Notes under the pieces: model-generated
What the model saw: only the letters and a program-made list of their open reading frames with translations
The model's database searches: none
What the model was told of the DNA's origin: nothing
Program-made: the position numbers and the translations under genes
Part shown: one piece after another, positions 7,396-45,035 of the stretch
Layout of the letters: each line of letters begins with the position of its first letter
How positions within the stretch are numbered: the first letter of the stretch is position 1
NCBI GenBank assembly: GCA_030704615.1
Contig: CM060732.1
Location: 58,838,001-58,902,000, forward strand
Direction of reading: 5' to 3'
Source: Takakia lepidozioides
Lineage: Eukaryota; Plantae; Bryophyta
Length of the DNA: 64,000 nt

Positions 7396-8350
7396 CTATA
7401 CTTGGGTGTCTGAGGAATCGGCATCAAAGGTCATCGGTGTCGGCATGTTCTTTTTGTCTGTTATGAAAGCATGACATATAGCTTGGCTGAGCTGAGAGAG
7501 CACAATGACCATGTTCTGACTTGTCTTGTCAATCTTCCTATCACGATGCTTGAGGTACTGCATGTGCTCTTTGGCAGTGCGCACACTCGCTTGGTTACGG
7601 CGGTCTTCAATCTCCATGATCTGTGTGGTGCTCAGGCGATCCATAGCATCTACTAGAATCTTGCTGTTGTGATCGCTGGATTCAATAACCGGGGCACAGG
7701 TACTCGTCCGTTTCTGTTTTACCCCTGTGTAGCTTCCTAAAGTATGAGTGGTATGTAGAATTGGAGTTTGGCCGGAGACCTAACTAGTCAAATTGATAAG
7801 GAACCTGGCAGCCTCGTTGGTTGTGGTTCTCTGAAAAATCATCCAAGTCTATGACATTGTAGTCTCTTGCTGGCTGGTCCAAATTGACTCTTCCTTCGGG
7901 ACTATTATGATTCACTTGGTGGTCTTCTAGCTTCTCATCAGGGATACCGTCCTCATCGAGTAATTCTTGCATGAGTGACGTTGGGGTAGGTACATAGTTT
8001 CCATCGCATTTAGCGTGTATGTCTCGGACATGTCTTGGGGCATTGATGATTCGCTCGCCCTGAAAGGCCTCAATAGCCTCAATAGCCTCATAGAATTCCC
8101 TATTGAATGATCGAGGGAGATGGAACGGGGATGGAACTTGTCTTTTTCAATGATCGTGAGTTCCCAGCAGTAAGTGTTGTGGCCAATACCCTTGTGGTAG
8201 TCTGACAATTTTTTGTAGTCAGAGTTAAGGCCATTCCATTTATCCTTACAAATTTTGCCATTGCGTGCAAACCTGTTCTTCACAATCTTATGAAGTTCCT
8301 CCGCAATGTTCATCCATCGTTGTGCAGCGGGAACCATGTGTGCCCTGGGG
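7396..8350 (-). mobile_element. Harbinger ORF2 (Myb/SANT-like DNA-binding protein), degenerate and 5'-truncated
   Basis: RWMNIAEELHK...RNGKICKDKWNGLNSDYKK trihelix/Myb signature, convergent with the transposase. A coiled-coil-like C-terminal fragment lies at 7396-7644. Confidence 0.75.
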
Positions 8351-9120
8351 TCTACAAGCGCTCCATCGAGAAGGCTTAATGAGGAATAGTTAAGTCCGCC
8401 TTGCCTTGAGTAATGGTGGTCGGCAGGTATGTATCGGAATTGGTGTTGCTGAGTAAACCGTGCCCATTCGCAATCTAATGGGGATGGGGATTTGTGTATG
8501 CCATTGTATGTGTGGCCGAGTAGGGCGATGTCTATGTTAAAGTTGCCTGCTAATATGTAGTGGTGATGTTGGTGCTCAGATTGGGTGATTGTATATGAGA
8601 TTGTGCGTAATATATTGGGGATCAGTGTGAGGTCATCAGCATGCGATGACATGTATAAGTGTATAAGGGTGATGGGGTGGAGCGGGGGCATGTGTAGTTG
8701 GATGATTTGAAGATGAGACCGAAGGGGGATAGGAACAATTAGTTTAGTAGTGGTGCTGGGGGAATGATGTGTGGAGAGGATGCCTAGTGCGACTCCACCA
8801 CGGGTGGGGTGGTATGGAACGGAGTGCCGTGTAAGGCACTGTGTAGCGGAGAGAGGGTTCCAATACAATAGATAGTAGGTTGGGAGAAGTTTGTTTATAG
8901 AGGAACTATTGGGATTATTTGTATTGAGCTTGGTTTCTTGCAAAAGGATGATGTGCGGAGGCGTAGAGTCTGTGAGAAGATGAATTAAACTCTGGACACT
9001 AGTGGCCATCGAACCGACATTCCAAGAGGTGATGTTGAGTGAGTTTGCGTGTTGGGAGGAGGTGGTGCGGGAATGATTGGGCGAGGCGGGTGATGGAGGG
9101 ACGTTGGTATAAGTGGGCAT
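8350..9120 (-). mobile_element. LINE APE-type endonuclease fragment
   Basis: NITSWNVG, IILLQETK, RGGVALGI, YILAGNFN (GDFN with D>N) and LSLLDG motifs. No RT follows. Confidence 0.8.
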
Positions 9121-9409
9121 GAGTGGTGGGGATGGGGATGGGGGTGGCGTAGGTAGGGGTTGGTATTCTAGGATGGGGGAACAAGCTTGGAGGGTGGCAA
9201 AGAGGATGTTTTTTTGATAGAAATGGGAATTTGTTAGTGATAGTGTGGCAATCTTGTGCGGATGTAGTTGAGTTTGCTAGATAATCGCCTGGTATTTTGT
9301 GAACTTCCCCGGGGTTGGAAACAGTGTATGGATACAAGTGGAGAGACTTTGCCTACCATACTTTTTCATTAAAAGTGTATGACATCTCGGGTGTATCTGG
9401 AGGAGTATT

Positions 9410-10269: not shown

Positions 10270-13200
10270 GTTCTCTACTCGGTTACCTTGTGGAAAGGGG
10301 GATTAGAGACAGATTTACAACAAGTGTGGTTGTGAGTTTCATCACGGAGGTGCCACCAGTTGCTGAGGAGAGTGCCGGTACGAGCACCAGCGATACTAGT
10401 GGGTATACAAGATAAGGTGTGCGGTTTAGGCCACCTTCACCTTCAGTGTCTTCTGAGGAAGGTTCAGACTCACAGTTAGGAGGATTCTCGCCGAGGGTGC
10501 AAGCCATTTCCGTGCTATTGTTGTGGGATACGATGGAGGAAATATATGGAGCTACCAAGGGGCCACGTCGGTACTCTGGAGTTGTGGGCACCATCGAGCT
10601 TGATGATTTCATACAGGAGTTTGATAGTTGGTATGATTTGCAGCAGATGCGCAATCCACAACTGTTTACGCCTTTTATGGCGTGGAAGGGGCTGTTTCAG
10701 CACCTTGAGGGGCCGCCCATGGATGACTACCATGAGTTTAGGCGGGGACATGAGGTGGAGATTGAGGAATGGCGGGTGTATTGGTCACCTGACTATGTCT
10801 CCATTACTAGAGGCACAAGGGCAGTGGTGACACCGGTAGCTATACCGGCAGCTTCTGCAAGCAGCAGTGGGACGTCAAGTGGAACAGGAGCTGGGAAGTC
10901 CACCCAAGCTCCTGCTGCAGCACCAACACCCGTGCCTGCCTTTAACCCAGTTGTGAAGTTCTTCGAGGAGTTAAGGAGAAACTACCAGGGGATAAGGACG
11001 GAGAATTGCGGAGTTTGCAAGAGTTCCAACGAAAGTCTGCCGAGAGTTTGAGGGAGGCTTACACTCGCATGAGACGCTTGATAAACGTAACCCAAGGGGT
11101 TACAAAGCTTAGGCAGTCCAGTTCTGGTATGGGATCCTGGACAAAGAGCTGAAGAGAAGGGTGCGGGATGCAACTCTCATACAAGTGGACCAACCCACCT
11201 TAACAAATGTGTTTTTGCTGGCAGAGCGGATAGAGCTCAATATGGTGGAGGAACGAGTGGTCATGGTGGGGTTTGGTCAGGAGATACAACGAAGTGGGGC
11301 TCCTAGCCAACAACAACCACTACCCCAACGTGCTCAAGGCAACAAGGGGGCTCAGGCGAAGCCCAAGGAAGGGCCGAGAGGATCTCAATTGCAGAGGTCA
11401 TTTCCTTCATTCTCAGGCCAACAACAGTCGGGTGTGACATGTTGGGATTGTGGAGGACCCCATGTTAAGAGAGATTGCCCGGAAAGAGGCAAAGGGTCGG
11501 CACAGGCACAGCCTACACAACTACAATGTGGGCATTGTGGCAAGTATGGGCATGAAGAGGCCCATTGGTATGACTTGCATCCTGAGCTATGGCCAGGCCA
11601 GTTCCAAGGGAACAATGGTGGCCGAGGACGAGGCAATGTAGTCCAGAGAGGTAGAGGAGGCAGAGGTCGGGGTGGAGGACGTAACTAAAACCAAGGAGCA
11701 CAGGGTCAGGGTCAAGGTCATGCATGGTGGATAGACTTGCCTAGCTAGAGCAACGTCTTGCTGCCATGGCCACTACTCATGTTGCGCCAGCTCCAAGGCT
11801 TGAGGTTCAAGCCCCACCTGCATAACCTCCTATGCCTAGGGAAGACCAGATTGATATGGGCTTCATGTGTGGAGCCGCACTTGCAGGACCATTGCATGTG
11901 GACTCTGCAGCTGCTGTCACTCGAGCAGCAACGCGTGCTCCCGAGCCAAGAGGAGCGGATGTGGATTTTGATCCATAGAGAGGGGAAGCAAGTCGACAGA
12001 CAAGGCTTCCCCTGTCTTTCACATTGGCTGAGACAGTACCAACCACACCATCGATGGTGCCAGCTCGTCCAAGTGTGTCAGAGGTAGAGCCTGCAAGAGT
12101 GCCAATGGGGAGAGTTGGCATGGCTCGGGGGATGTCAGTGGATGATACTGCAAAGCAAGGTGCGGCCAGTACATTGTTGGGGGCGGCTACGGCAATTTGC
12201 CAAGCTCCATTGTTTTCTGCCACGACAATTGCAATGCCGGGGAGGCCAGCTGCAGTGTTTAGACTGGCAGCTAGACTCTGTGAGAGTGGTGATGCATCGG
12301 CATTATCTGCAGGGATAGCGGATCAGGTGCAGTGCATGGATGCCCTGGATTCAAGGGTGAAGACAGCCACAGCTGCGCCATGGCAAGCGGCAGCTGCAAG
12401 GTTGCAAGAGTTGTCAGCTAGACCAGCCATTGAGCTTAGTATGGTGACTCCTGGGGTAGTCCTGGTGGACAATCAGGATGGTGTGTTTCAGTTGGGTGGC
12501 CCGCCCGGGAGGAGGTATAGACCACTGCGGGTCTTGTTGGACTCGGGAGCACAGCCATTGATGTTGGGGAGAGCAACAATTGCAGGCTTGGATTTTACAG
12601 AGGCGGATTTGGAGCCTTGCCATTTCCAAATTCAAACATCTTTGGGCGGTTTAGAGAAGGCACGAGGGATTACACGCCATGAGCTCTTCATTCGATTGCA
12701 GCCAGATCATCCTACAGATGGCTCTGTCATGAAAGCTAAAGCCATTGTTACGGACGCGATGTCTTATGATGTGCTTGTTGGTGGGGCTGTGTTATACCCG
12801 ATGGGCTTTACTTTGGACTTTTGGGAGGAAACGGCATCCTACAGGCCGGAATGGCAGTCAGGGGATGGTCGACGTGCACTGCTCCCAGTGCGGTTTATTG
12901 GGAATGTAGCAGTGGATCATATGAACATGATACCCACATTGGCTGCATTCTCAGGGGTGGCGGCTTAGGATGGTGAGCTCTTGGAGGGCAATAGCTATGC
13001 AGATGATAGGCCACCACCTGATGAGGACAAACAATTGATTTGCTTCCTCATGTGTCTGTTCATATTCCACTGTGGGGTACAGTTAGGAATTCGCATCGAA
13101 TAGCAGGCGAGTATGTGCACCAAGCATGGCAGGAGGCATATCCATTGGTGAGTGAGGGGAGTTCAGTGACATCACCTAGACTTCCTCAGTTAGCTCCTTT

Positions 13201-16200
13201 GGATACAGTGCCCATTACCTGACAACCACCTGACTTAGGGATTTGTTTGCTAGACCTGTTTGGAGGCATGAGCACTAGGCTTGCAGGAGTGTTGCAAGGT
13301 GGGATTAAAGTACGCAAGTACTTGTATGTGGAGAAAGATGAGATAGCTCGGCGTATTTCTATGCGCCACATCGCCTTGCTCACACACCAGTACCCTGAGT
13401 TGTTGCCTCTCTCAGCCATTCAAGGGTATCAAAAGGCCTTGCCAGCAGACATTACCTTGCTAGGGGCAGATGATTTGGACCGGCATGGTGCCATTGACTT
13501 GGTGATAGCTGGATGGCCTTGCCAAGGACACTCTCCCGCAGGTCATGGGAACGGCTTGCATGATGCACGATCGCATTTGTTTTGGGAGATGTTGAGAGTG
13601 TTGCGTGACTTGCAGACGAGGCAAGTGCAACAGCCTATATCTTGGAGAATGTTCCTCTTATGGGGGACTCTCGGGCCAGGGTTATGGCCAGTGTGCATCA
13701 GGTGCGGTCTTGGATTGGATCGGCGGTGCTATTGGATGCAGCAGCGGTAGGATCACGAGCGCATCGACCTCGATTGTGGTGGACCAATCTTACACCACCA
13801 GAGCTGCTCAAGAGAGCATACGATTCCATTCAACAGCCACCAATATCACAGTTGAGTGTATTTTGGACCAAGGGAGGCAACCACAGAGGGTGCGACATGA
13901 TGACCGTCCACCTCTAGCAGTGGTAAATCGAGTGGGGCAACCACTTGCGGCCTTGCCTACGTTTATGAGCTTTCCCTTGTCTCATGCTTTTCGAGACAAT
14001 GGTCCTGGGTTGATTTGGGACAGTGTGCTACAACAATTGGTGGAGCCCAATGCAGATGAGCGAGAGCGGGCAATGGGATTTGCCACGGGCACTACAGCTG
14101 TGCCAGCTCTGTCAGAGGCATCACGTCGACATATGTTGGGTCAAGCAATGGATCTAAATTGCTTGACATGGGTCATTGGCTTGTGCATGGTTGTGCAACA
14201 GAGGTTGTAGATAGTGGTGGCTACTTCTGCACTCCCATTTCGTATTGTATCCCCTCTGCCAACCGGGACGGTTGAGGCAGTGAGTGGGGGCGAACACAGG
14301 ATCATGAGGTGCAAACACCCATGGCAGATGTGGGATGAGATGTGGAAAGAGAGAGTCATTGGATCTCTCAAGCAACAATATAAGGAGTGGGGAGAGCCAT
14401 ACACTGAGGATCAGTTGGAGGCCAAGGTGGCCAATGTTTTTGAAGAGGTTGAGAATTTTTCTTCCCCAAAGGATGTTCTCAAGGTGGTTATGGCAGAGCA
14501 AGTGGAGGCTACGCCACAGTCAGATTGGGCGGACAAGGCCCAAGAGGTTGCTATCTAGCAACCAAAGGATTCGTCTCCTACCTCCAAGCCTGATGTACCC
14601 AAGGTTGCAGTCACTGAGGACAATTGGAAACCAGATGTTGGACCTACAGTCACCGGAGGAGAGAGACGGAGGATCCAGCGATTTCTAAGGGCTTAGAGAA
14701 ATTGCTTTGCCTTCTGTTTGAAGGATTTGGGAAGTTTGAAGGGTCAGGAGATTCGTATTGATTTGGCAAGTGACACGCCAATCTTTCGAAGGTCCTACCG
14801 GTATAGTGACATGGAGAGGTCATTGATCCAGTCATGGACTATGGAGTTGTTCGAAGCTGGATTGGTGGAGTTGTCAGGCGGGGAGTATGCCTCTGCAATG
14901 ATGATGCAAGCTAAGAAGGATATCTATGGCAATTGGACAAAAAGAAGGATGTGTGGGGACTATCGTCCTGTGAACCATCAGACTAAGTCCGATAGATATG
15001 CCATGCGAACTCCAGAGGAAATCTTTGATGCCATTGGGCATGCGAAGGTGTTTAGTACGTTGGACTTGCGATCCGGTTACCACCAGTTGCCAATCAAAGA
15101 GGCTGACAAGCAAAAGACGACATTCTGGGGGATTGACCAACATGGGAAGGATTGCTTGTACCAATGGCGTTTCCTACCGTTTGGGTTGAAGAATGCTCCT
15201 GCAGAGTTTCAGAGGGTTATGGATAGGGTTCTCGCGGGGCTAGACTTTGCCCGGTGTTACATTGATGACATCATCGTCTTTAGTGCTACGGTTGAGGAGC
15301 ATGAGAGATACCTTCATGTGGTGTTTGAGCGCTTGAGAGCGCATGGGTTGAAATTGCACCCTGGGAAATGCAAGTTCTTGCACAACCAGATTGTTTATCT
15401 GGGCCACATGATATACCCTGGAGGATTGGGTGTTCAAAAGACGAAGGTGGAGGCCATTGCACGCATTCCACGCCCCATAGATGTTAGCAGAGTTCGTGCT
15501 TTCATGGGGTTGGCAAACTACTATCGACGGTTTGTCAAGGGATTTAGCAGCATTGCAAAGGCTCTTACTAAGTTGACTAAGGTAGGTCAGGAGTGGCAGT
15601 GGGAGGAGGAGCAGGAGGAAGCCTTTGAGGAACTCAAGGCTCGATTGACTTCTACACCTATTCTGAGGCGGCCTATTCGGGGGCGGCCTTTCCAGCTACA
15701 TATGGATTGGAGTATGCTGGGGATTGGAGTAGTGCTCACACATATGGATGATGAGGGAAGAGAGTTTGTAGTGGCATATGCTAGCCGCTCAAACAATGAT
15801 GCCGATGCGAAGTATAGTTCCTATGAAGGGAGTGTCTAGCTGCGGTATGGGCAATGGCACATTTCAGATGCTACCTCTATGACAATCTCTTCACCCTTGT
15901 CACGGATCACCAACCATTGAAGTGGTTGACGGAGTCAGACAAGCTTACAGGGAAGCTTGCACGGTGGGCACGTATGCTTCAAGAATACGACTTTCAGGTG
16001 GTGCATCGAGCCGATATTGTCAATCGGGATGCAGATGGATTGAGTCGTAATCCATGCACGAACGAGCATGATGATACTGGAGCTCGGTGGCATGGTGAGA
16101 CGGATGAGGAGATGGTGCCAGGATGGCATGCATCTGCCTTTTTGTGCATCCTAGCAATGGGAGCTCAAGCTGGTCCATCCCATAGCATTGGTCATGTAGA

Positions 16201-17565
16201 TGGTGTACATGACGATCCGGAGATCAGTGAGGAGCTTGGTGGTGCTAAAGATGTGCATGAAGATGCAGCAGTGTTGGCCTACCTTCGTACTAGAGAGACA
16301 GCAGTCAGTGTGACTGCTAAGGATAACGAGCCAAGAGGTTCAAGTGGGAGGGGACTCACCTATTCCGAGTATGGGAGGATGGACAAGCGAGGATTGTGCC
16401 TCATCCAACACAACGAGCGCGATTGGTACGCCATGCCCATGAGGAGTTGGGACATTTTGGGGTGCGGCGCACTCATAGTTTGCTGCAAGGACAGTACTGG
16501 TGGCGGGGCATGCACACGGATGTGCAACAGTTAGTGTCAAGGTGCATGGTGTGTGATAAAATGCGAGCTTCTTTCAATGCACCTACTCCACAATTGCATC
16601 CTTTACCCATTATGGGTTTGGGCTATCATTGGAGTCTGCACTTCGCAGGCCCATTGTCACTAACGATTCGCCATAACAAGTATGTGCTGGTGATGGTGGA
16701 ACATTTCTCCAAGTGGATTGAACTAGTGGCATTACCTGACAAGGCAAGTGAGGGGGCTGCGTATGCAATCTTAGATCGAGTGCTTAGCCAATTTGGTGCT
16801 CCAGCCGAGGTACTCACGGACCAGGGGAGAGAGTTCTTGGGGGAGTTTCAGGCTTTGTGTGAGCAAGCCTTGATAGATCACCGCACTACTTTTCGGGATC
16901 ATCCCGAGGCTGATGGCATGGCATAGAGGGTTGTACAAATAGTCAAGCGAGGCTTGCGCAAGTATGGCTTGCAGAAGGGACACTTAGGAGATTGGGACCT
17001 TCAGCTACCTTGGTTGACCATGGGCTACAGGTTTAGCAAACAAGCATCACTTGCCTCGTTCTCGCCTTATTTCCTTCTCTTTGGCCGAGAGCCAGATTTG
17101 CCTGCATCTATTCGCAAGGAGACTGCAGTAGTTCTCAACCTTGATGATCCGGATGTATGGACACAAGCATGTGCCCAGCGGGCAGAGTTGTTCAAGAGAG
17201 TCATGCCTATGGCTTTTGAGAACCTTGCTATTGCCCAATACCGAGACACATTGAGGTACGCCACTATACGTGGAGGGGGATATCGGCGAGATGTTCGACG
17301 TTTCCACCCTGGGGACTATGTGTATCTGCAGCAGACAGCGCCTACGACTTTGGATGTCATAGCAGGGCGTGTGATTCTAAGGGTCCGGGAGGTGTTACCT
17401 TCGTTGATTCTGGAGGGTCGACATGGAATGGTATGGAAGGACCATGTGTGCAATTGTGCGCCATGTCACCTTCCCCATGTGGATGGGAGGATAGATCCCA
17501 ACCTTGCAGTGGTACCTGTAGGGTTGCGTTGCATGCTATGTGGGCATGCTGGTGGTGCCGCGACC
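10270..17565 (+). mobile_element. Ty3/Gypsy LTR retrotransposon internal region: gag-PR-DNMT-RT-RNaseH-INT, decayed and 3'-truncated
   Basis: Zinc knuckles CWDCGGPHVKRDC and CGHCGKYGHEEAH; protease VLLDSGA (~12530); RT MCGDYRPVN, FSTLDLRSGYHQ, YIDDII; RNaseH VVAYASR, LVTDHQPL; integrase HAHEELGH..CMVC, LTDQGREF. Integrase after RT is the Gypsy order. LTRs could not be delimited. Confidence 0.95.
13240..14210 (+). pseudogene. DNMT3-like C5 cytosine DNA methyltransferase domain inside Gypsy pol
   Basis: Motif I LDLFGGMST, II YVEKD, III ADIT, IV DLVIAGWPCQGHS, V LFWEMLRVL, VI YILENV, VIII AHRPRLWWTNL, IX ERERAMGF, X RRHMLGQAM, in non-permuted order. Two frameshifts (~13630, ~13840). Confidence 0.9.
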
Positions 17566-17643
17566 GATTGTGGCATAGCTTTCTAGGATTGTGTGCTTAG
17601 AATGTATGGTGGACAGCGATGTATGTTGTGGCACGATGCTTAG

Positions 17644-20440
17644 GTGCACGACAGACACTTGGTTGCACAAAGCGACCTTCTGGAGCCAGGTGAGACTATA
17701 AAAACATTGTGACTGTTCCAACAATGAGTACATGGTTTCTTATGTTTATTAACTCAAAATGTGGCGGATGGTTGTGCAGCTGGAGAAGCGGGCAATAGAT
17801 ACTTTTGAGAAATCACTGCTGGACTACAAGATCACAATGACCACTCCGAGCATCAAGTTCCAGTCATATGTTCGGAAATGGAGAAGAGAGCTGTGGAAGT
17901 ATGCATTTTTCCGTGAGTTCAAGAAGGAAGGGGGAATACTGCGCTCGCAAGACTTTGACCATCAGTATAACGGGGAGCAGGCAATGAAACGAGTTATGTA
18001 CAAGTACTGCCTTTTATGTTGATGGCACTACATTAAGATGTCATTGACGACATCTTAAAACAGACATTGTCTGTAGTGCAAATAGCAATTTTTCGGTACT
18101 ACACAAAGAATTTGATGTATGAACTGGGTCGATTTAAGGTGGTGTTGACGACACCTTAAATCGGTGCCCTTTGGGCTCTTCAAAACTGTATAGTTGCACA
18201 CATCTGTTTCTTGTTCATCTGCAGGTCTTCATTGTTTTGTTGTGCTTCCTGCAATTCAAGATGTCGTAACAGGCATCCTTTTGTAGTCCAGAAAGTCATT
18301 TTTCGTCAGACAACAAAAAAATACCATGTGCGTAGGGGTTGATTTAAGATGGCGTTGACGACATCTTAAATGGCTGTTCTTTGGGCTCTCGGAAATAGTT
18401 CAGTTGAGCATGTCTGTTTTCTGTTGTTCTGTATCTCTTCAATTTCTCTTCAAGTTCCTGGATTTTATGATGTCGTCAACGACATCTTAAGGTGTAGTTT
18501 GCAAATATGCAATGAACAGGTGAGTTCTTGTGGTCTGTGGGGATATATGCTCTGAGTAAGAACACTGGTGTGGATGCAGGTACTTTCACTTCGTTCTTAT
18601 TCCAGATAAGGCTCTCAGTGATGATCCGGACTTTATTCGTGGATGGGCGAACCCAGACGACGACACCACTATGTTCACTGCGGGAATTGTGAAGGACTGG
18701 GGTCGGGCACATTACAGCGACTGCGGGTGGTACCTCGACTGCCCTCGGCAGTCCACTCCGTGGGAGGAGAACGTCTTGAGGAATCAGAATGAGAATGCAG
18801 ATGCCTTGGCACCCCGGACAGATGAGGAGTTGCAGGCTAGGTTCCTTGCACAGCTGAGTAAGAAGGAGCCAGCAAAGACGTCCACCCCCGCGGGTGGGAA
18901 GAAGAAAAACAAAGGGAAACAGACTGCGGAGGCAGGTGGGTCTGCCGGTGCTACGACTGCCGTTGATTCTGGGTCAGGGCCTGCAGGGACTGGTGGGGCA
19001 TTTCTTGATCGCCCACAGGCAGATCATCGCATTGTGCATACAGAGGTCCAGCAGATTTCCATGACAGCTGATGAAAGGACTAACCACAGGGCAGGGAAAC
19101 GACCTTACGAAGCCCGACTTTGTGTCTCCAGAGTAGTGGGGCCGCAGTTCCAGCGGAAAACAACAAACGTCAGCTTCCTGCATATGATGGAGTCCAAGAA
19201 GTCCACATTCACAGGGGTCAAATCTCCTGCATGGGACCACCTCTGTTCTTTCCTCACCCTGGTAATGCCCATGCATCTTTCAACTTTGATTCCCATTTCA
19301 TGACATTGTGGGGTTTTGGATTTGCTGGATTAAGATGTCGTCAACGACATCTTAATCCACCAGTGCTTTGTACTACCAGTTCCCTAAATGTATACCAACT
19401 ACCCAATTTCATTCGCTTGCATTTGCTTTTGGCAGGTGACAAAGAATCCATGCTGGGTGAACGGTGTCCAGCAGCCTTACGCCGCTAACCTTGTAATCCT
19501 TGACATCCCGGATGGGCAGCCTGTGCTTGATATCATTCCCCCTGCTGTGACTCCACAGTGGAATGCTCAAAACCCTCTGTATTGGCAGTGGGCATTCTCT
19601 TTCTGCAACAAGTTCCTCTCTGACGCAGGGGGCCTTCTGATATTTCAATCTGACGACATGGCATCCCGCCGGATTCTTCATAGCTACATGAAGTCCTCTG
19701 GGTTCCAAATCAACAAAATATGGACATGTGTTAATACACCGCCTCTGTCGAAGGGGGAGTTTCCAGGGCAGAAGGTATATCCTGTAACTTTCATTTGTCT
19801 TCGTCTGTGTTGTCGTTGAATACCCATAGTTGCTGACATATTTCCATTGTTGCTGGTGCAGACCCATGTGTTCAAGGCCATTTGCCTGTCACGAATTCGG
19901 CCTGCCAACACTCCTGCTTATGTTGGGCATTTCGACATTTGGGGAGGAGGTCTGCACATAAACCCAGATTGCGACCCAGTCGAATCTGATGTTGTTCACA
20001 ACTATGTGGATGCGTCCCAAACTCTGAAAAAGACTTGAGGAATTCCATGGAGAGGTGCCCGGGAGAAGTTGCCCGCGTTTATGCAGACCTTCATTGAGAC
20101 ATGCAGCCGGCATGGTGGCAAAGTGGTTGACCTCTCCATGGGCACAGGTGCATGCCGAAACTCTTCTTCATTCTTCGTTGCACATGTTCCTCTCCTGTTT
20201 TGGTTTCTGACATGGTTTCGTGCTTTCATTCGCTATCCTACAGGGGCTTCGTTCCATGCCTGCAAGTGTGCAAGAAGACATCTTTTTGGGTTTGAGGGGA
20301 ACGAGGAGCTTTACTCTCGAGTCATCGCTCCACTCTATGAGGGATCCTCGCATTCAACCCAGACTGAGAAGATTGTTGAGGAGGAAGATCTGCAAGAGCC
20401 GGATGCTCTGGATGTGGATTCGGATTTTTCATGTGACTAA
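17644..20440 (+). pseudogene. Spliced gene with C-terminal beta-class N6-adenine/N4-cytosine DNA methyltransferase-like domain; exons 17644-17689, 17780-18003, 18580-19261, 19436-19774, 19862-20147, 20244-20440; 5' end missing
   Basis: All five GT-AG introns join in frame. NLVILDIPDG (DPPY-like motif IV), KFLSDAGGLLIF, then EKLPAFMQTFIETCSRHGGKVVDLSMGTGASFHACKCARRHLFGFEGNEELY (motifs X, I, II). One in-frame TGA at 20036-20038. Confidence 0.72.
18033..19359. repeat. Six copies of a ~26-34-bp palindrome (TTAAGATGTCGTYRACGACATCTTAA) in introns
   Basis: Copies at 18033-18058, 18131-18162, ~18255-18280 (degenerate), 18342-18371, 18465-18490 and 19326-19359 (perfect 16-bp arms). The first five lie in a ~210-bp tandem duplication. 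Confidence 0.9.
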
Positions 20441-36787: not shown

Positions 36788-39700
36788 CACTAGTACAGAC
36801 TAACGTTTTTATAACTATGGATATCACTGCATTTGCAATGATAAGTGCTGTTATGACTACCTCACTCTGCAGTGACAAACACGAAGTCAATTCTACCATG
36901 ACTACGGAGTGATAAGTGCGAAGTCATGGTCGTCACTGAGGACGTGGCATGGGATAGTGATGCAGGGTTTGGTGATGTAGTCATAACAAATATGACTACA
37001 CGACTGAAAGTTATGACTGAGGTTACGACTACATCACTACAACATTGCGCCTACATGGAGAGGCCTCTGTGTGACACGTGGGATCCTTGGGCATTGACAT
37101 ATGTAATCATCACTTGATGGTGCAGTGGAGTAGTCATATCTTTATGACTACACGACTATGGGTATGATTATATCACTACAACACTACAGATGGCACGTGG
37201 TCTCGTTGGAGCAGGTGTGACTGACACGTGTTGATCATGTAAATTTTACAATTTATTAAATGTTATTTAATTTTAAATGACTAATTTAGATATTAAATTA
37301 AATTAAATTAATATGAAATTTAACTTTGTGGAGCTCTCATAAGCACAACAATTGGCAAAGAGGAAAGGCCATCTATACCAAGACACAACCCCTATGAGAG
37401 AGCATGCATTAATCTTTCAATGACCAACGAATCAACCCCCAACCCTGTTGGCAGTTGCAAAGAGTGGCAAAGAAAGATTCTACCACCAACCTTGTTGCAT
37501 AGACTGGCAGAAGCAACAACATGATACAATATGAAAGACACAACTACAATCAAACATGTCATCCATAGAAACACCACACACAACCTCAGAGGACATTGCA
37601 CCTTCGAACGATATTGGATGTTAATACATCAGACACTGACATGGTGTTTGAACCAGTCTGCCTATATATATTCCCAAAATATACTTCATCCTTCAAGCAC
37701 AATGTTGCTAAGCACTACCGCAACAAGAAATTGACCATCTACGTAGGTTTCTTGTAGCTATCCTTCCACAGGGAATCATAGGTAATCTGGAGCTTGAAAT
37801 CCAACCTTCTTGGATGAATCTGGACGCACACTCTATCCCTGCTCCTTCAGCTATCCATGCTTCTACACAAAATCATGCATACATCCTTGCTTTGCTGCTA
37901 GCAGCTGACAATGACAGCCTAGATTTGTTCTAGGAAACACCCAACTCAACTTATCACACTAGTTCATATGCTCAATGGCATCTGCTACTCTCTGTAATCC
38001 AACAGGCATTCACCTTTTTGCCTCGATTGTCCCACCATTGACTGGAGTCAGAAAGTATTCATTCCATAGCTTCTCCTCGTCTCTGTTACCTGTTTCTGGA
38101 CACTTTCCTGTTGTCACATTGGCAATACCATGTCAAAGTCACTCCAAACTATCAAAGGTTCACTCAACCAGCTACCTTGCAGAATTGAACATGAAAATTT
38201 AGAACCGATTTCTGATTAGAGGGGAAAACAAGGTTAATTGTGTTGAAGAAGGTGCCTTGATTACTAGTGCCTGATTTTATATGGAATCATAGGTAATCTG
38301 GAGCTTGAGATCCAGCCTTCTTGGATGAATCTGGACCCACACTCTATCCCTGCCCCTTCAGCTATCCATACCTCCGCACAAAATCATGCATACATCCTTG
38401 CTTTGCTGCTAGCAGCTGACAATGACAGCCTAGAATTGTTCAAGCAAACACCCCAACCCTACTTACCACACTAGTTCATATGCTTAATAGCATATTATGC
38501 TACTCTATGTAATCCATCAGGCATTCACTTTTTTGCCTGGATTGTCTCACCATCGACTGGGGTCAGAAAGAATTCATTCCACAGCTTCTCCTCGCCTTTG
38601 TTACATGTTTGTGGATACTTTTCTGTTGTCACATTGACAGTATCATGTCAAAGTCACTCCAAACTATCAAAGGTTCACTCAACCAGCTAACTTGCAGAAT
38701 TCAACGTGAGGGCCGATTCCGATTAGAGGGAAAAACAAGGTGAATTGTGTTGAAGAAGGTGCCTTGATTACCAGTGCATGATTTTATCAATTGTGCCGCT
38801 GCTGCTGCGGCTTCCAGTTGACCATCTACCCATGCAGGTTTCTTGTAGCTATCCTTCCACATGGAGTCATAGGTAATCTGGAGCTTGAAATCCAGCCCTC
38901 TTGGATGAATCTGGACCCACACTCTATCCCTGCCCCTTCAGCTATCCATGCCTCTGCACAAATCATGCATACATCTTTGTCTTGCGGTTAGCAGCTGACA
39001 ATGACAGCCTAGAAATGTTCCAGCAAACACCCCAACCCTACTTGTCACACTAGTTCCTATGCTGATTTGCGTCTGCTTCCAATAGACATTCACCTTTTTG
39101 CCTCGATTGTTCCACCATTGACTGGGGTCTTAAACGTATTCCTTCCAAAGCTTCTCCTTAGCTACCTTGCAGAGTTCAACATCAAAATTCAGGGACGACT
39201 ATGATAGCAAGAAAAACAAGGTGGAATGTGTTGAAGAAGGTACCTTCATCAGCAGTGCCTTGTTCTATCAATTGTGCAAGCTCAAGTGATGGGCTCAAGA
39301 GAAGTTTATTTTTTGATATCCAGTGGGGCCTTTTGCAGAAATCATCCTTGAAATCACAAGCATACACCATATCCTTCTTTCGTCCTCTCTCCTCACCAAA
39401 ACAGAGTCCCTCCTTATCTTGACTATTTGCAGAAGCAATCAGCTTGTCAGTCAGTAGTTACCCCTTCTTATCTAAGTGTGCATCCCACAAACAAATTAAG
39501 ACCTTAGCTTGCACTCAGGCACCCATTGATAAGTTTCCAGGGCCCTATACTCTCTCAGTCTGATAACCCAACATCAAGCAAGAGAATCCCTACTGCAACT
39601 ATATGTAAAGCAGGAACAACCATCAGATTGTAAAGTATTCACCAAATGCATCCCACTACTTGGTGCATGCTGGTGCTGTACCAGACCCTAACTCTTGACA

Positions 39701-44534: not shown

Positions 44535-45035
44535 GGTGAGAGTTGGGGCTGACTTGGAGCCATAATTCTTTGAGGAAGCTAAGAGCTTGTTTATCAAATA
44601 CAAAGATGTATTTGCTTGGAGCTATGAAGATCTGCAAGGGATACCACCTGAGATCTGCCAGCATAAGATTGAACTGGAACCAGGGTCAGTACCAATTAAA
44701 TAGGCAAGGTGCAGGATGAATCCCAACTATGCACAGAAGGTTGGGGAAGAGATTAAGAAGTTGGCTGAGGCTAAGTTCATATACCCGATAAAGTATACAA
44801 CTTGGCTATCACCCATTGTGATGGTTCCCAAGAAGAATGGCAAACTAAGAGTTTGTGTGAACTATAAGAAGTTGAATGATTGTACAAAGAAAGATCCATT
44901 TCCTTTGCCATTTACAGATGCTGTATTGGACACTGTGGCAAGCCACTCGTTCATGGATGGCTTCAGTGGGTATAACCAAGTATAAGTAGCCGAAGAAGAC
45001 CAGTGAAAGACTGCTTTCATCACAAACTGGGGTGG
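44535..45035 (+). mobile_element. Ty3/Gypsy RT fragment
   Basis: YKDVFAWSYEDLQGIPP..WLSPIVMVPKKNGKLRVCVNYKKLN..FMDGFSGYNQ..KTAFITNWG, with stops. Confidence 0.88.

Follow-up and report, generated by a model that had tools for sequence, protein, structure and literature searches.

The locus and its decayed Gypsy element

The window, by which we mean the whole 64-kb stretch of DNA that was analysed, carries on its + strand a decayed Gypsy retrotransposon extending from ~10,530 to 17,653, in which gag, protease, methyltransferase, reverse transcriptase (RT), RNase H, integrase and half of a PHD finger are recognised (Table 1). The window is land-plant DNA, to judge from exons of two 2OG dioxygenases, an expansin, a GH19 chitinase and a GH9 glucanase. 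The N-terminal 86 residues of its gag match the Marchantia protein P0004 at 76%, the gag being further interrupted by frameshifts near 11006 and 11105 as well as by stops, and the RT frame is the same as that of the protease and of the tail of the first open reading frame (ORF1). The stops at 12966, 13220, 14208, 14694 and 16924 correspond to codons which are open in relatives; the first three had been interpreted as decay in the original prediction, and this interpretation holds because the same codons are open in a Marchantia relative. The locus is almost certainly a dead copy of a liverwort and moss Gypsy family whose first frame encodes Gag, protease and a DNMT3-type methyltransferase (DNMT).

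Table 1. Features of the Gypsy element in the window (positions are those of the window)
Feature	Position	Strand	Evidence or remark
gag with CCHC knuckles (first at 11440)	10533..11690	+	tblastn against Marchantia P0312, 46-57% identity
Aspartic protease, D-S-G at 12534-12554	12450..12860	+	57% to protease region of P0004
Predicted DNMT3-type C5 cytosine methyltransferase, motifs I, IV, VI, VIII, IX, X	13241..14207	+	PF00145, motif positions
ORF1 C-terminal tail behind the DNMT	14211..14555	+	stop at 14208 is decay of a single copy
Conserved in-frame stop, TAG CAA CCA (UAG-CAR-YYA)	14556..14564	+	same position in relatives
Reverse transcriptase, YIDD at 15258	14757..15536	+	RVT_1, E 2.2e-30
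RNase H, frameshift near 15830	15602..15990	+	PF17919, E 6.7e-20; PF17917, E 1.7e-16
Integrase, HHCC zinc finger and DDE core, stop at 16924	16405..17112	+	PF17921, E 6.3e-17; rve, E 5.7e-13
PHD finger, first half; a deletion cuts the window copy	17530..17565	+	colinear with intact L029 ORF2 to 17565
3' end, repeat B remnant, terminus CACGACA	17590..17653	+	local alignment to repeat B of L033

The element is high-copy in the organism of the window. Indeed, for the other copies the summed contig depth, which is not equal to copy number, ranges from 6e4 to 5e5 across the element, DNMT included, with the depth over the DNMT being of the same order as that over the RT, and it is ~2e3 beyond 17,738, the bins past 17737 showing a ~100-fold drop. 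The CpG observed/expected ratio of the element (0.49) lies inside the range of the window and is uninformative about the DNMT. No relatives were found in viral contigs.

Several other remnants are noted in the window. Upstream of the Gypsy element, a LINE-type endonuclease fragment is joined to a Myb/SANT-like fragment (7927-9276, - strand), which may have displaced the Gypsy 5' end. A heavily decayed, separate RT remnant lies at 44572-45033 (+), and a strongly CpG-depleted repeat of ~510 bp is present in three copies at 37772-39268. Just downstream of the Gypsy element, at 19437-20437 (+), an intron-containing and stop-broken gene piece resembles N6/N4 amino-methyltransferases and is regarded as a lead only: 24 of its 30 ESM Atlas feature matches carry PF01555 (score 0.92), while Pfam and PDB sequence searches were without match. 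This piece lies inside another repeat with palindromic subrepeats (18040-19350) and is of interest in the light of the liverwort 4mC enzymes.

The methyltransferase domain

The original prediction had placed the motifs of a C5 methyltransferase at 13240..14210 in the pol region, and all six strings are present at these positions on the + strand (LDLFGG at 13250, GWPCQ at 13511, ILENV at 13639, HRPRLWWTNL at 13762, ERAMGF at 14064 and RRHMLG at 14124), being spread over three frames, which change near 13633 and again near 13845. The profile check then suggested gave a match of the first piece to Pfam DNA_methylase (PF00145) with an E value of 5.3e-10, better than the curated cut-off. The domain lies between protease and RT and its motif order is canonical and non-permuted. 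We have further analysed P0001, a close intact relative which matches the methyltransferase domain of the window at 73%: its best match among PDB sequences is human DNMT3A (E 6e-12), followed at a distance by DRM2 (2e-4) and HhaI (4e-3), and a fold search with its predicted model (pLDDT 86) recovers a C5 methyltransferase fold with DNMT3A/B as best match (E 4e-18). Also, the catalytic cysteine, the glutamate of the ENV motif and the R-x-R of motif VIII are invariant in 20/20 diverse aligned relatives. The domain is thereby of the DNMT3 type, as had been proposed from the motifs, with DRM, DNMT1/CMT and bacterial enzymes being less close, and is predicted to have C5 methyltransferase activity.

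The DNMT is kept by purifying selection. The dN/dS analysis, likewise suggested at the outset, yields 0.12 over 319 codons for the DNMT domains of the relatives L029 and L031, both of which are stop-free; elsewhere in this pair the ratio is 0.11 for the protease, 0.04 for the RT and 0.59 for the ORF1 tail. Comparison of the window with its sister lineage (lineage 1) gives pN of 0.16-0.24 and pS of 0.65-0.84, these being partly saturated, and Ka/Ks of 0.07-0.14 where dS is unsaturated. Two decayed lineage 1 copies have a dN/dS of 0.71, as neutral decay predicts.

Distribution of the family

Three protein searches retrieved 26, 78 and 89 relatives, among which the named bryophytes are Marchantia polymorpha (many loci), Calypogeia fissa, Sphagnum troendelagicum and S. 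fallax, and the named green algae Monoraphidium, Haematococcus and Cymbomonas. In a scan of metagenomes 310 stretches were confirmed, from which 80 loci were kept, all with the domain order Gag-protease-DNMT-RT-RNase H-integrase-PHD as far as the contigs extend. The methyltransferase is a trait of the family, then, and not a one-off insertion, as Marchantia, Calypogeia, Sphagnum and the 80 metagenome loci have the domain. In M. polymorpha, full-length Gag-protease-DNMT ORFs stand under ordinary gene identifiers (e.g. Mp_4g09160, Mp_5g06330 and Mp_Vg00370), and at least two of them, Mp_Vg00370 and Mp_Vg00540 (P0004 cluster), are on the male V chromosome, where they are annotated as hypothetical or CCHC proteins.

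Two layouts are distinguished among 312 DNMT-matching proteins: the RT precedes the DNMT in 99 (algal type), the DNMT precedes the RT in 20, these being read in one frame and several of them being spliced gene models, and a further 69 have protease and DNMT without RT. Trees were calculated for RT (51 rows) and DNMT (57 rows) by a quick search with SH-aLRT support only, taking one in three of the 81 algal-type rows plus the named ones; the DNMT tree was drawn from its midpoint and is not rooted, and the Symbiodinium protein P0275 dropped out. Both trees split the two layouts (support 96) and group the window with Marchantia, Calypogeia and lineage 1. From these kin of the element, the host is likely a bryophyte. 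The elements bearing the stop described below form one supported group (99 on the RT tree, 98 on the DNMT tree).

The algal-type sister group (P0045-P0083 and P0237-P0272) is large, with members in Monoraphidium, Haematococcus and Cymbomonas, and has the layout RT-RNase H-DNMT3-integrase-PHD, many members having Trp-Glu-Cys instead of Pro-Cys at motif IV. These elements share homologous DNMT3 and PHD domains with the window family, from which they differ in having a single Pol frame where the DNMT follows RNase H and precedes the integrase, and in lying on the opposite side of the branch with support 96. No description of a chlorophyte Gypsy-DNMT3 element was found in those parts of the literature on DNMT-carrying elements that were accessible. 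A second DNMT3-PHD lineage (lineage 3, L041-L080) occurs in the same metagenomes as lineage 1; it has no stop and has GWECQ at motif IV, and its split repeats, palindrome and self-priming site are the same as in the stop-bearing relatives.

Ends, repeats and integration

No paired LTRs were found in the 64-kb window, and neither repeat A nor the 5' end was recognised in the window copy, which retains only a B-like 3' end (local alignment score of 32 to repeat B of L033, while none of 200 shuffles scored above 25). Position 8031, which follows a GACA, was considered as a 5' end and discarded because it belongs to the minus-strand remnant of a Myb-like gene unrelated to the element.

The anatomy of the ends is evident in relatives, which have no terminal LTR pair and are arranged as A1 - internal - polypurine tract - B1 - A2 - B2, the 3' end being of the B-A-B type in 10 loci and a single B in 7 loci. 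Repeat A begins with TGTCA and repeat B finishes with CGACA; the internal B|A junction is a near-palindrome, CGACA-NN-TGTCA, in three lineages. A 4-bp target duplication is found in 6/8 loci with both ends and fails in 2/8, L072 being unscorable. The last 15 nt of A1 can pair with a site that lies 162-183 nt inside A, with at least 12/15 pairs in 17/23 loci (some of them duplicates) and in 4/920 control windows. This complementarity suggests a primer site matched to repeat A and fits self-priming of the kind known from Tf1-type elements. No tRNA-type primer site was found for the four motifs tried in four loci, and no self-primer or second repeat was found in L029, whose contig begins inside the leader.

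The A2|B2 joint equals both ends of a conventional BA repeat joined together, the primer-site end being linked to the polypurine-tract start. Since the insertion ends come from inside this conventional B+A repeat, an integrase cutting a circle at the palindrome is suggested, and a cut with a 2-nt stagger would presumably leave ends like those of processed retroviral DNA. On the basis of these sequences we incline, slightly, towards integration from a circle. A circle with two repeats is expected to give insertions in two orientations, A-B-A..B as well as A..B-A-B, and B is found upstream of A1 in 0/23 loci; this one-sidedness favours the alternative that A..B-A-B arises from linear cDNA via an unusual strand transfer and with no circle, which we consider the less probable of the two but a serious contender. 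Against such a transfer stand the identity of the A2|B2 joint with the ends of a conventional repeat, the derivation of the inserted ends from a palindrome with a 2-nt spacer inside that repeat, and the 7 single-B insertions, as would result from circles with one repeat or from B-B recombination.

A PHD finger behind the integrase

Wherever the integrase C-terminus is visible in relatives, it bears a complete PHD finger. That of L029 matches the fingers of CHD4, PHF12, PHF21A, KDM5 (PHD1) and ATXR5 with E values from 1e-16 to 1e-11. Fingers of this type mostly bind histone H3 unmethylated at K4, the mark read by the ADD domain of DNMT3, and by analogy the element PHD is predicted to bind H3 unmethylated at K4.

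A conserved stop between DNMT and RT

The window copy has an in-frame stop at 14556-14558 that was absent from the stops listed in the original prediction, TAG followed by CAA CCA. That prediction had put the DNMT inside pol, in one original polyprotein: the DNMT is indeed in frame with protease and RT in the intact relative L029, but the conserved stop separates the RT from it. From the reading frames, ORF1 is Gag-protease-DNMT, with the DNMT ending this frame in the lineage of the window. In L029, 1,369 open codons are followed by TAG CAG TTA and by 1,047 open codons in the same frame, the TAG being the sole stop in 2,417 codons. The first methionine after the stop is at codon 117 in L029 and codon 85 in the window, and lies 3-5 codons past the stop in lineage 1 and L031.

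In lineage 1 a stop is present at 30 of 31 located junctions (23 TAG and 7 TAA, the remaining junction having TAC), or at 23/24 without duplicates. The junctions were found via a flanking pattern, so that flank conservation is partly built in, while stop positions were left free. As a control, the 5,936 other codons contain 45 incidental stops, at most 6/18 at one site, and CARYY follows only 4 of the 45. The sequence UAG-CAR-YYA is exact in the window, L029, L031 and L039, this last having TAG CAA CCA like the window; the lineage 1 context, CAA CCC, agrees in 5/6 consensus letters, and that of L069 and L072 is decayed. Eight Marchantia ORFs (P0004, P0010, P0014, P0305, P0306, P0312, P0313 and P0317), read at the protein level, all end 79 residues past the DNMT match. 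Among the other copies in the organism of the window no variant of at least 5% is listed at 14556-14564 (depth ~1.3e5), but the control stop at 14694 is also without an entry, the table extending to 14687, and this weakens the comparison.

In lineage 3 no stop occurs in the 75 codons checked in 16/24 anchored loci, and no stop site is common to more than 3; an apparent gag/pol frameshift in this lineage was rejected on reading the frames. The stop is also absent in single-ORF proteins such as P0270, and persistence of the family does therefore not require DNMT at capsid level.

UAG-CAR-YYA is the type I readthrough consensus, the signal of tobamoviruses (Firth and Brierley 2012, PMC3542737). 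In tobamoviruses, as in the present elements, this stop and hexamer are followed in frame by a replication ORF (PMC3542737), the difference being that here the stop belongs to an LTR-type retrotransposon and stands between a Gag-protease-DNMT frame and the RT. The conservation and context of the stop make it quite probable that it is read through to produce RT-RNase H-integrase-PHD. Readthrough also occurs in SIRE1 and other retroelements.

Proposed mechanism and alternatives

The following cycle is proposed. The RNA would start ~165 nt into repeat A and prime itself; most ribosomes would halt after the DNMT and a few percent would read through, the DNMT being made at capsid level with many copies per particle. 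Reverse transcription would yield BA-internal-BA DNA, given that the polypurine tract marks the start of B and the primer site the end of A. The DNA ends would join into a circle, which the integrase would cut at the palindromic B|A junction, resulting in an A..B-A-B insertion with a 4-bp duplication, while the PHD finger would steer the integrase to histone H3 tails unmethylated at K4. Packaged DNMT would methylate the cDNA, which would enter the genome already marked like host heterochromatin. As a whole, the reading that combines a conserved leaky stop, DNMT at capsid level and methylation of the element's new DNA is one that we favour with some reserve; as to its last part, that new cDNA is the putative substrate of the DNMT, we consider the question evenly balanced.

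With readthrough granted, the DNMT could act instead on chromatin at the insertion site, on other copies or competing elements in trans, or on element RNA. An abundant enzyme made at Gag level could work in the nucleus, DNMT3 is a de novo enzyme, and de Mendoza et al. leave several such roles open (PMC5890265); on the other side, a Gag fusion would put the enzyme in the particle beside the cDNA, and the fold is DNMT3-like and not DNMT2-like. Taken together, we regard these other targets as rather unlikely.

The main rival to readthrough is splicing onto the AG of the stop: the TAG would be a 3' splice acceptor, or the mark of a subgenomic RNA, and an intron would remove the end of ORF1 and join the upstream frame to the RT, as in Ogre elements. 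TAG is valid as an acceptor, a T-rich run precedes it in lineage 1, and introns are drawn across the junction in public gene models of Marchantia and Sphagnum; these models, however, differ in their boundaries and none resumes at the stop. The 7 TAA copies of lineage 1 represent 6 changes, as in shuffles, corresponding to independent decay and to no clade, and therefore do not exclude AG as splice acceptor. Weighing against splicing, the supposed acceptor falls together with the ORF1 stop and the RT frame in lineages with tails of 80, 112 and 124 codons, it is the downstream CAR-YY (Gln-Pro, Gln-Leu) that the lineages have in common, a sequence for which an acceptor has no need, and a strong pyrimidine tract is absent in the window; we therefore judge splicing improbable and retain readthrough as the preferred explanation of the stop. 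That the window copy, being a pseudogene, reflects a one-off capture of a host DNMT3 or a functionless passenger is contradicted by the domain's presence at the same place in hundreds of relatives, by the agreement of the RT and DNMT trees, by purifying selection and by the comparable depths of DNMT and RT in the organism's other copies, and is extremely improbable.

Relation to known elements

DNMT cargo in Gypsy elements is already known. KnitGypsy-Dnmt3 of Klebsormidium nitens is a Gypsy element with an intronless, non-permuted DNMT3 in the Pol ORF, with purifying selection (Ka/Ks < 0.2) and a DIRS-like repeat layout combined with Gypsy domains, and its description confines it to the K. nitens lineage (de Mendoza et al. 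2018, PMC5890265). The kinship in kind with Klebsormidium elements that had been proposed is borne out by this combination of Gypsy domains, DNMT3 and DIRS-like repeats (PMC5890265). Both KnitGypsy-Dnmt3 and the bryophyte family have the order protease-RT-RNase H-integrase with a DDE integrase, split repeats and a DNMT with Ka/Ks < 0.2, and both have an intronless DNMT3 within a polyprotein frame, which in L029 is the same as that of protease and RT. They differ in that the DNMT is not continuous with the RT in the lineage of the window, although it is so in lineage 3 and P0270. No named Klebsormidium protein was among the protein-search matches, and the likeness to KnitGypsy-Dnmt3 is one by description. 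The text of PMC5890265, as far as it was accessible, names no land plant as host and describes neither a PHD finger nor a stop that separates DNMT from RT, nor target duplications, nor self-priming; its figures may show the domain order, the PHD or the stop. Later papers name 'streptophytes' as hosts, without land-plant detail in the parts accessible (PMC12344493; bioRxiv 10.64898/2026.05.21.726589).

DNMT3 cargo is also carried by SymbioDIRS-Dnmt3 in Symbiodinium (PMC5890265). The bryophyte family differs from DIRS elements in having a DDE integrase and 4-bp target duplications (6/8), and a profile search found no match to a tyrosine recombinase in the window element. Split-direct-repeat DIRS elements of the PAT/Ngaro type have the A..B-A-B repeat layout and a likely circular intermediate. 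EpiLTRs/DAM-LTRs are Gypsy elements with DAM, a DNMT4-sister enzyme and a chromodomain (bioRxiv 10.64898/2026.05.21.726589); the likeness to these lies in the pairing of a DNA methyltransferase with a chromatin reader, the bryophyte family having DNMT3 and PHD instead. Unlike chromoviruses, it has no chromodomain at the integrase C-terminus, the PHD finger being there instead. New here are the occurrence in bryophytes, with intact ORFs in Marchantia, the conserved stop of readthrough type and the anatomy of integration; none of these was found in print in a search that took in a minority of subscription journals.

Significance

The reason why retrotransposons keep a host silencing enzyme has been open since 2018, partly as Symbiodinium and Klebsormidium are hard hosts, and the full-length ORFs of Marchantia polymorpha make the question testable in a genetic model; bryophyte methylome studies may be missing these extra DNMT3 copies. 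If leaky as proposed, the conserved stop would give many DNMTs for each RT, a dosage by which the hypotheses can be told apart. Split repeats, palindrome and target duplication together point to an integrase acting on circles, which would be unusual for an LTR element. Lacking paired terminal LTRs and interrupted by an internal stop, such elements will be missed or mis-split by annotation tools.

In its widest form, which we put forward only tentatively and hold to be doubtful as a whole, the proposal is of a Gypsy lineage extending across green plants which would prime itself, circularise and integrate through a palindrome within its repeat, with one bryophyte-containing clade loading DNMT3 into the particles at capsid stoichiometry via readthrough of the plant-virus type and producing premethylated copies aimed by the PHD finger at chromatin unmethylated at H3K4. 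If true, this would constitute a self-contained writer-plus-reader module that rebuilds the logic of DNMT3 and its ADD domain, with intact ORFs in Marchantia.
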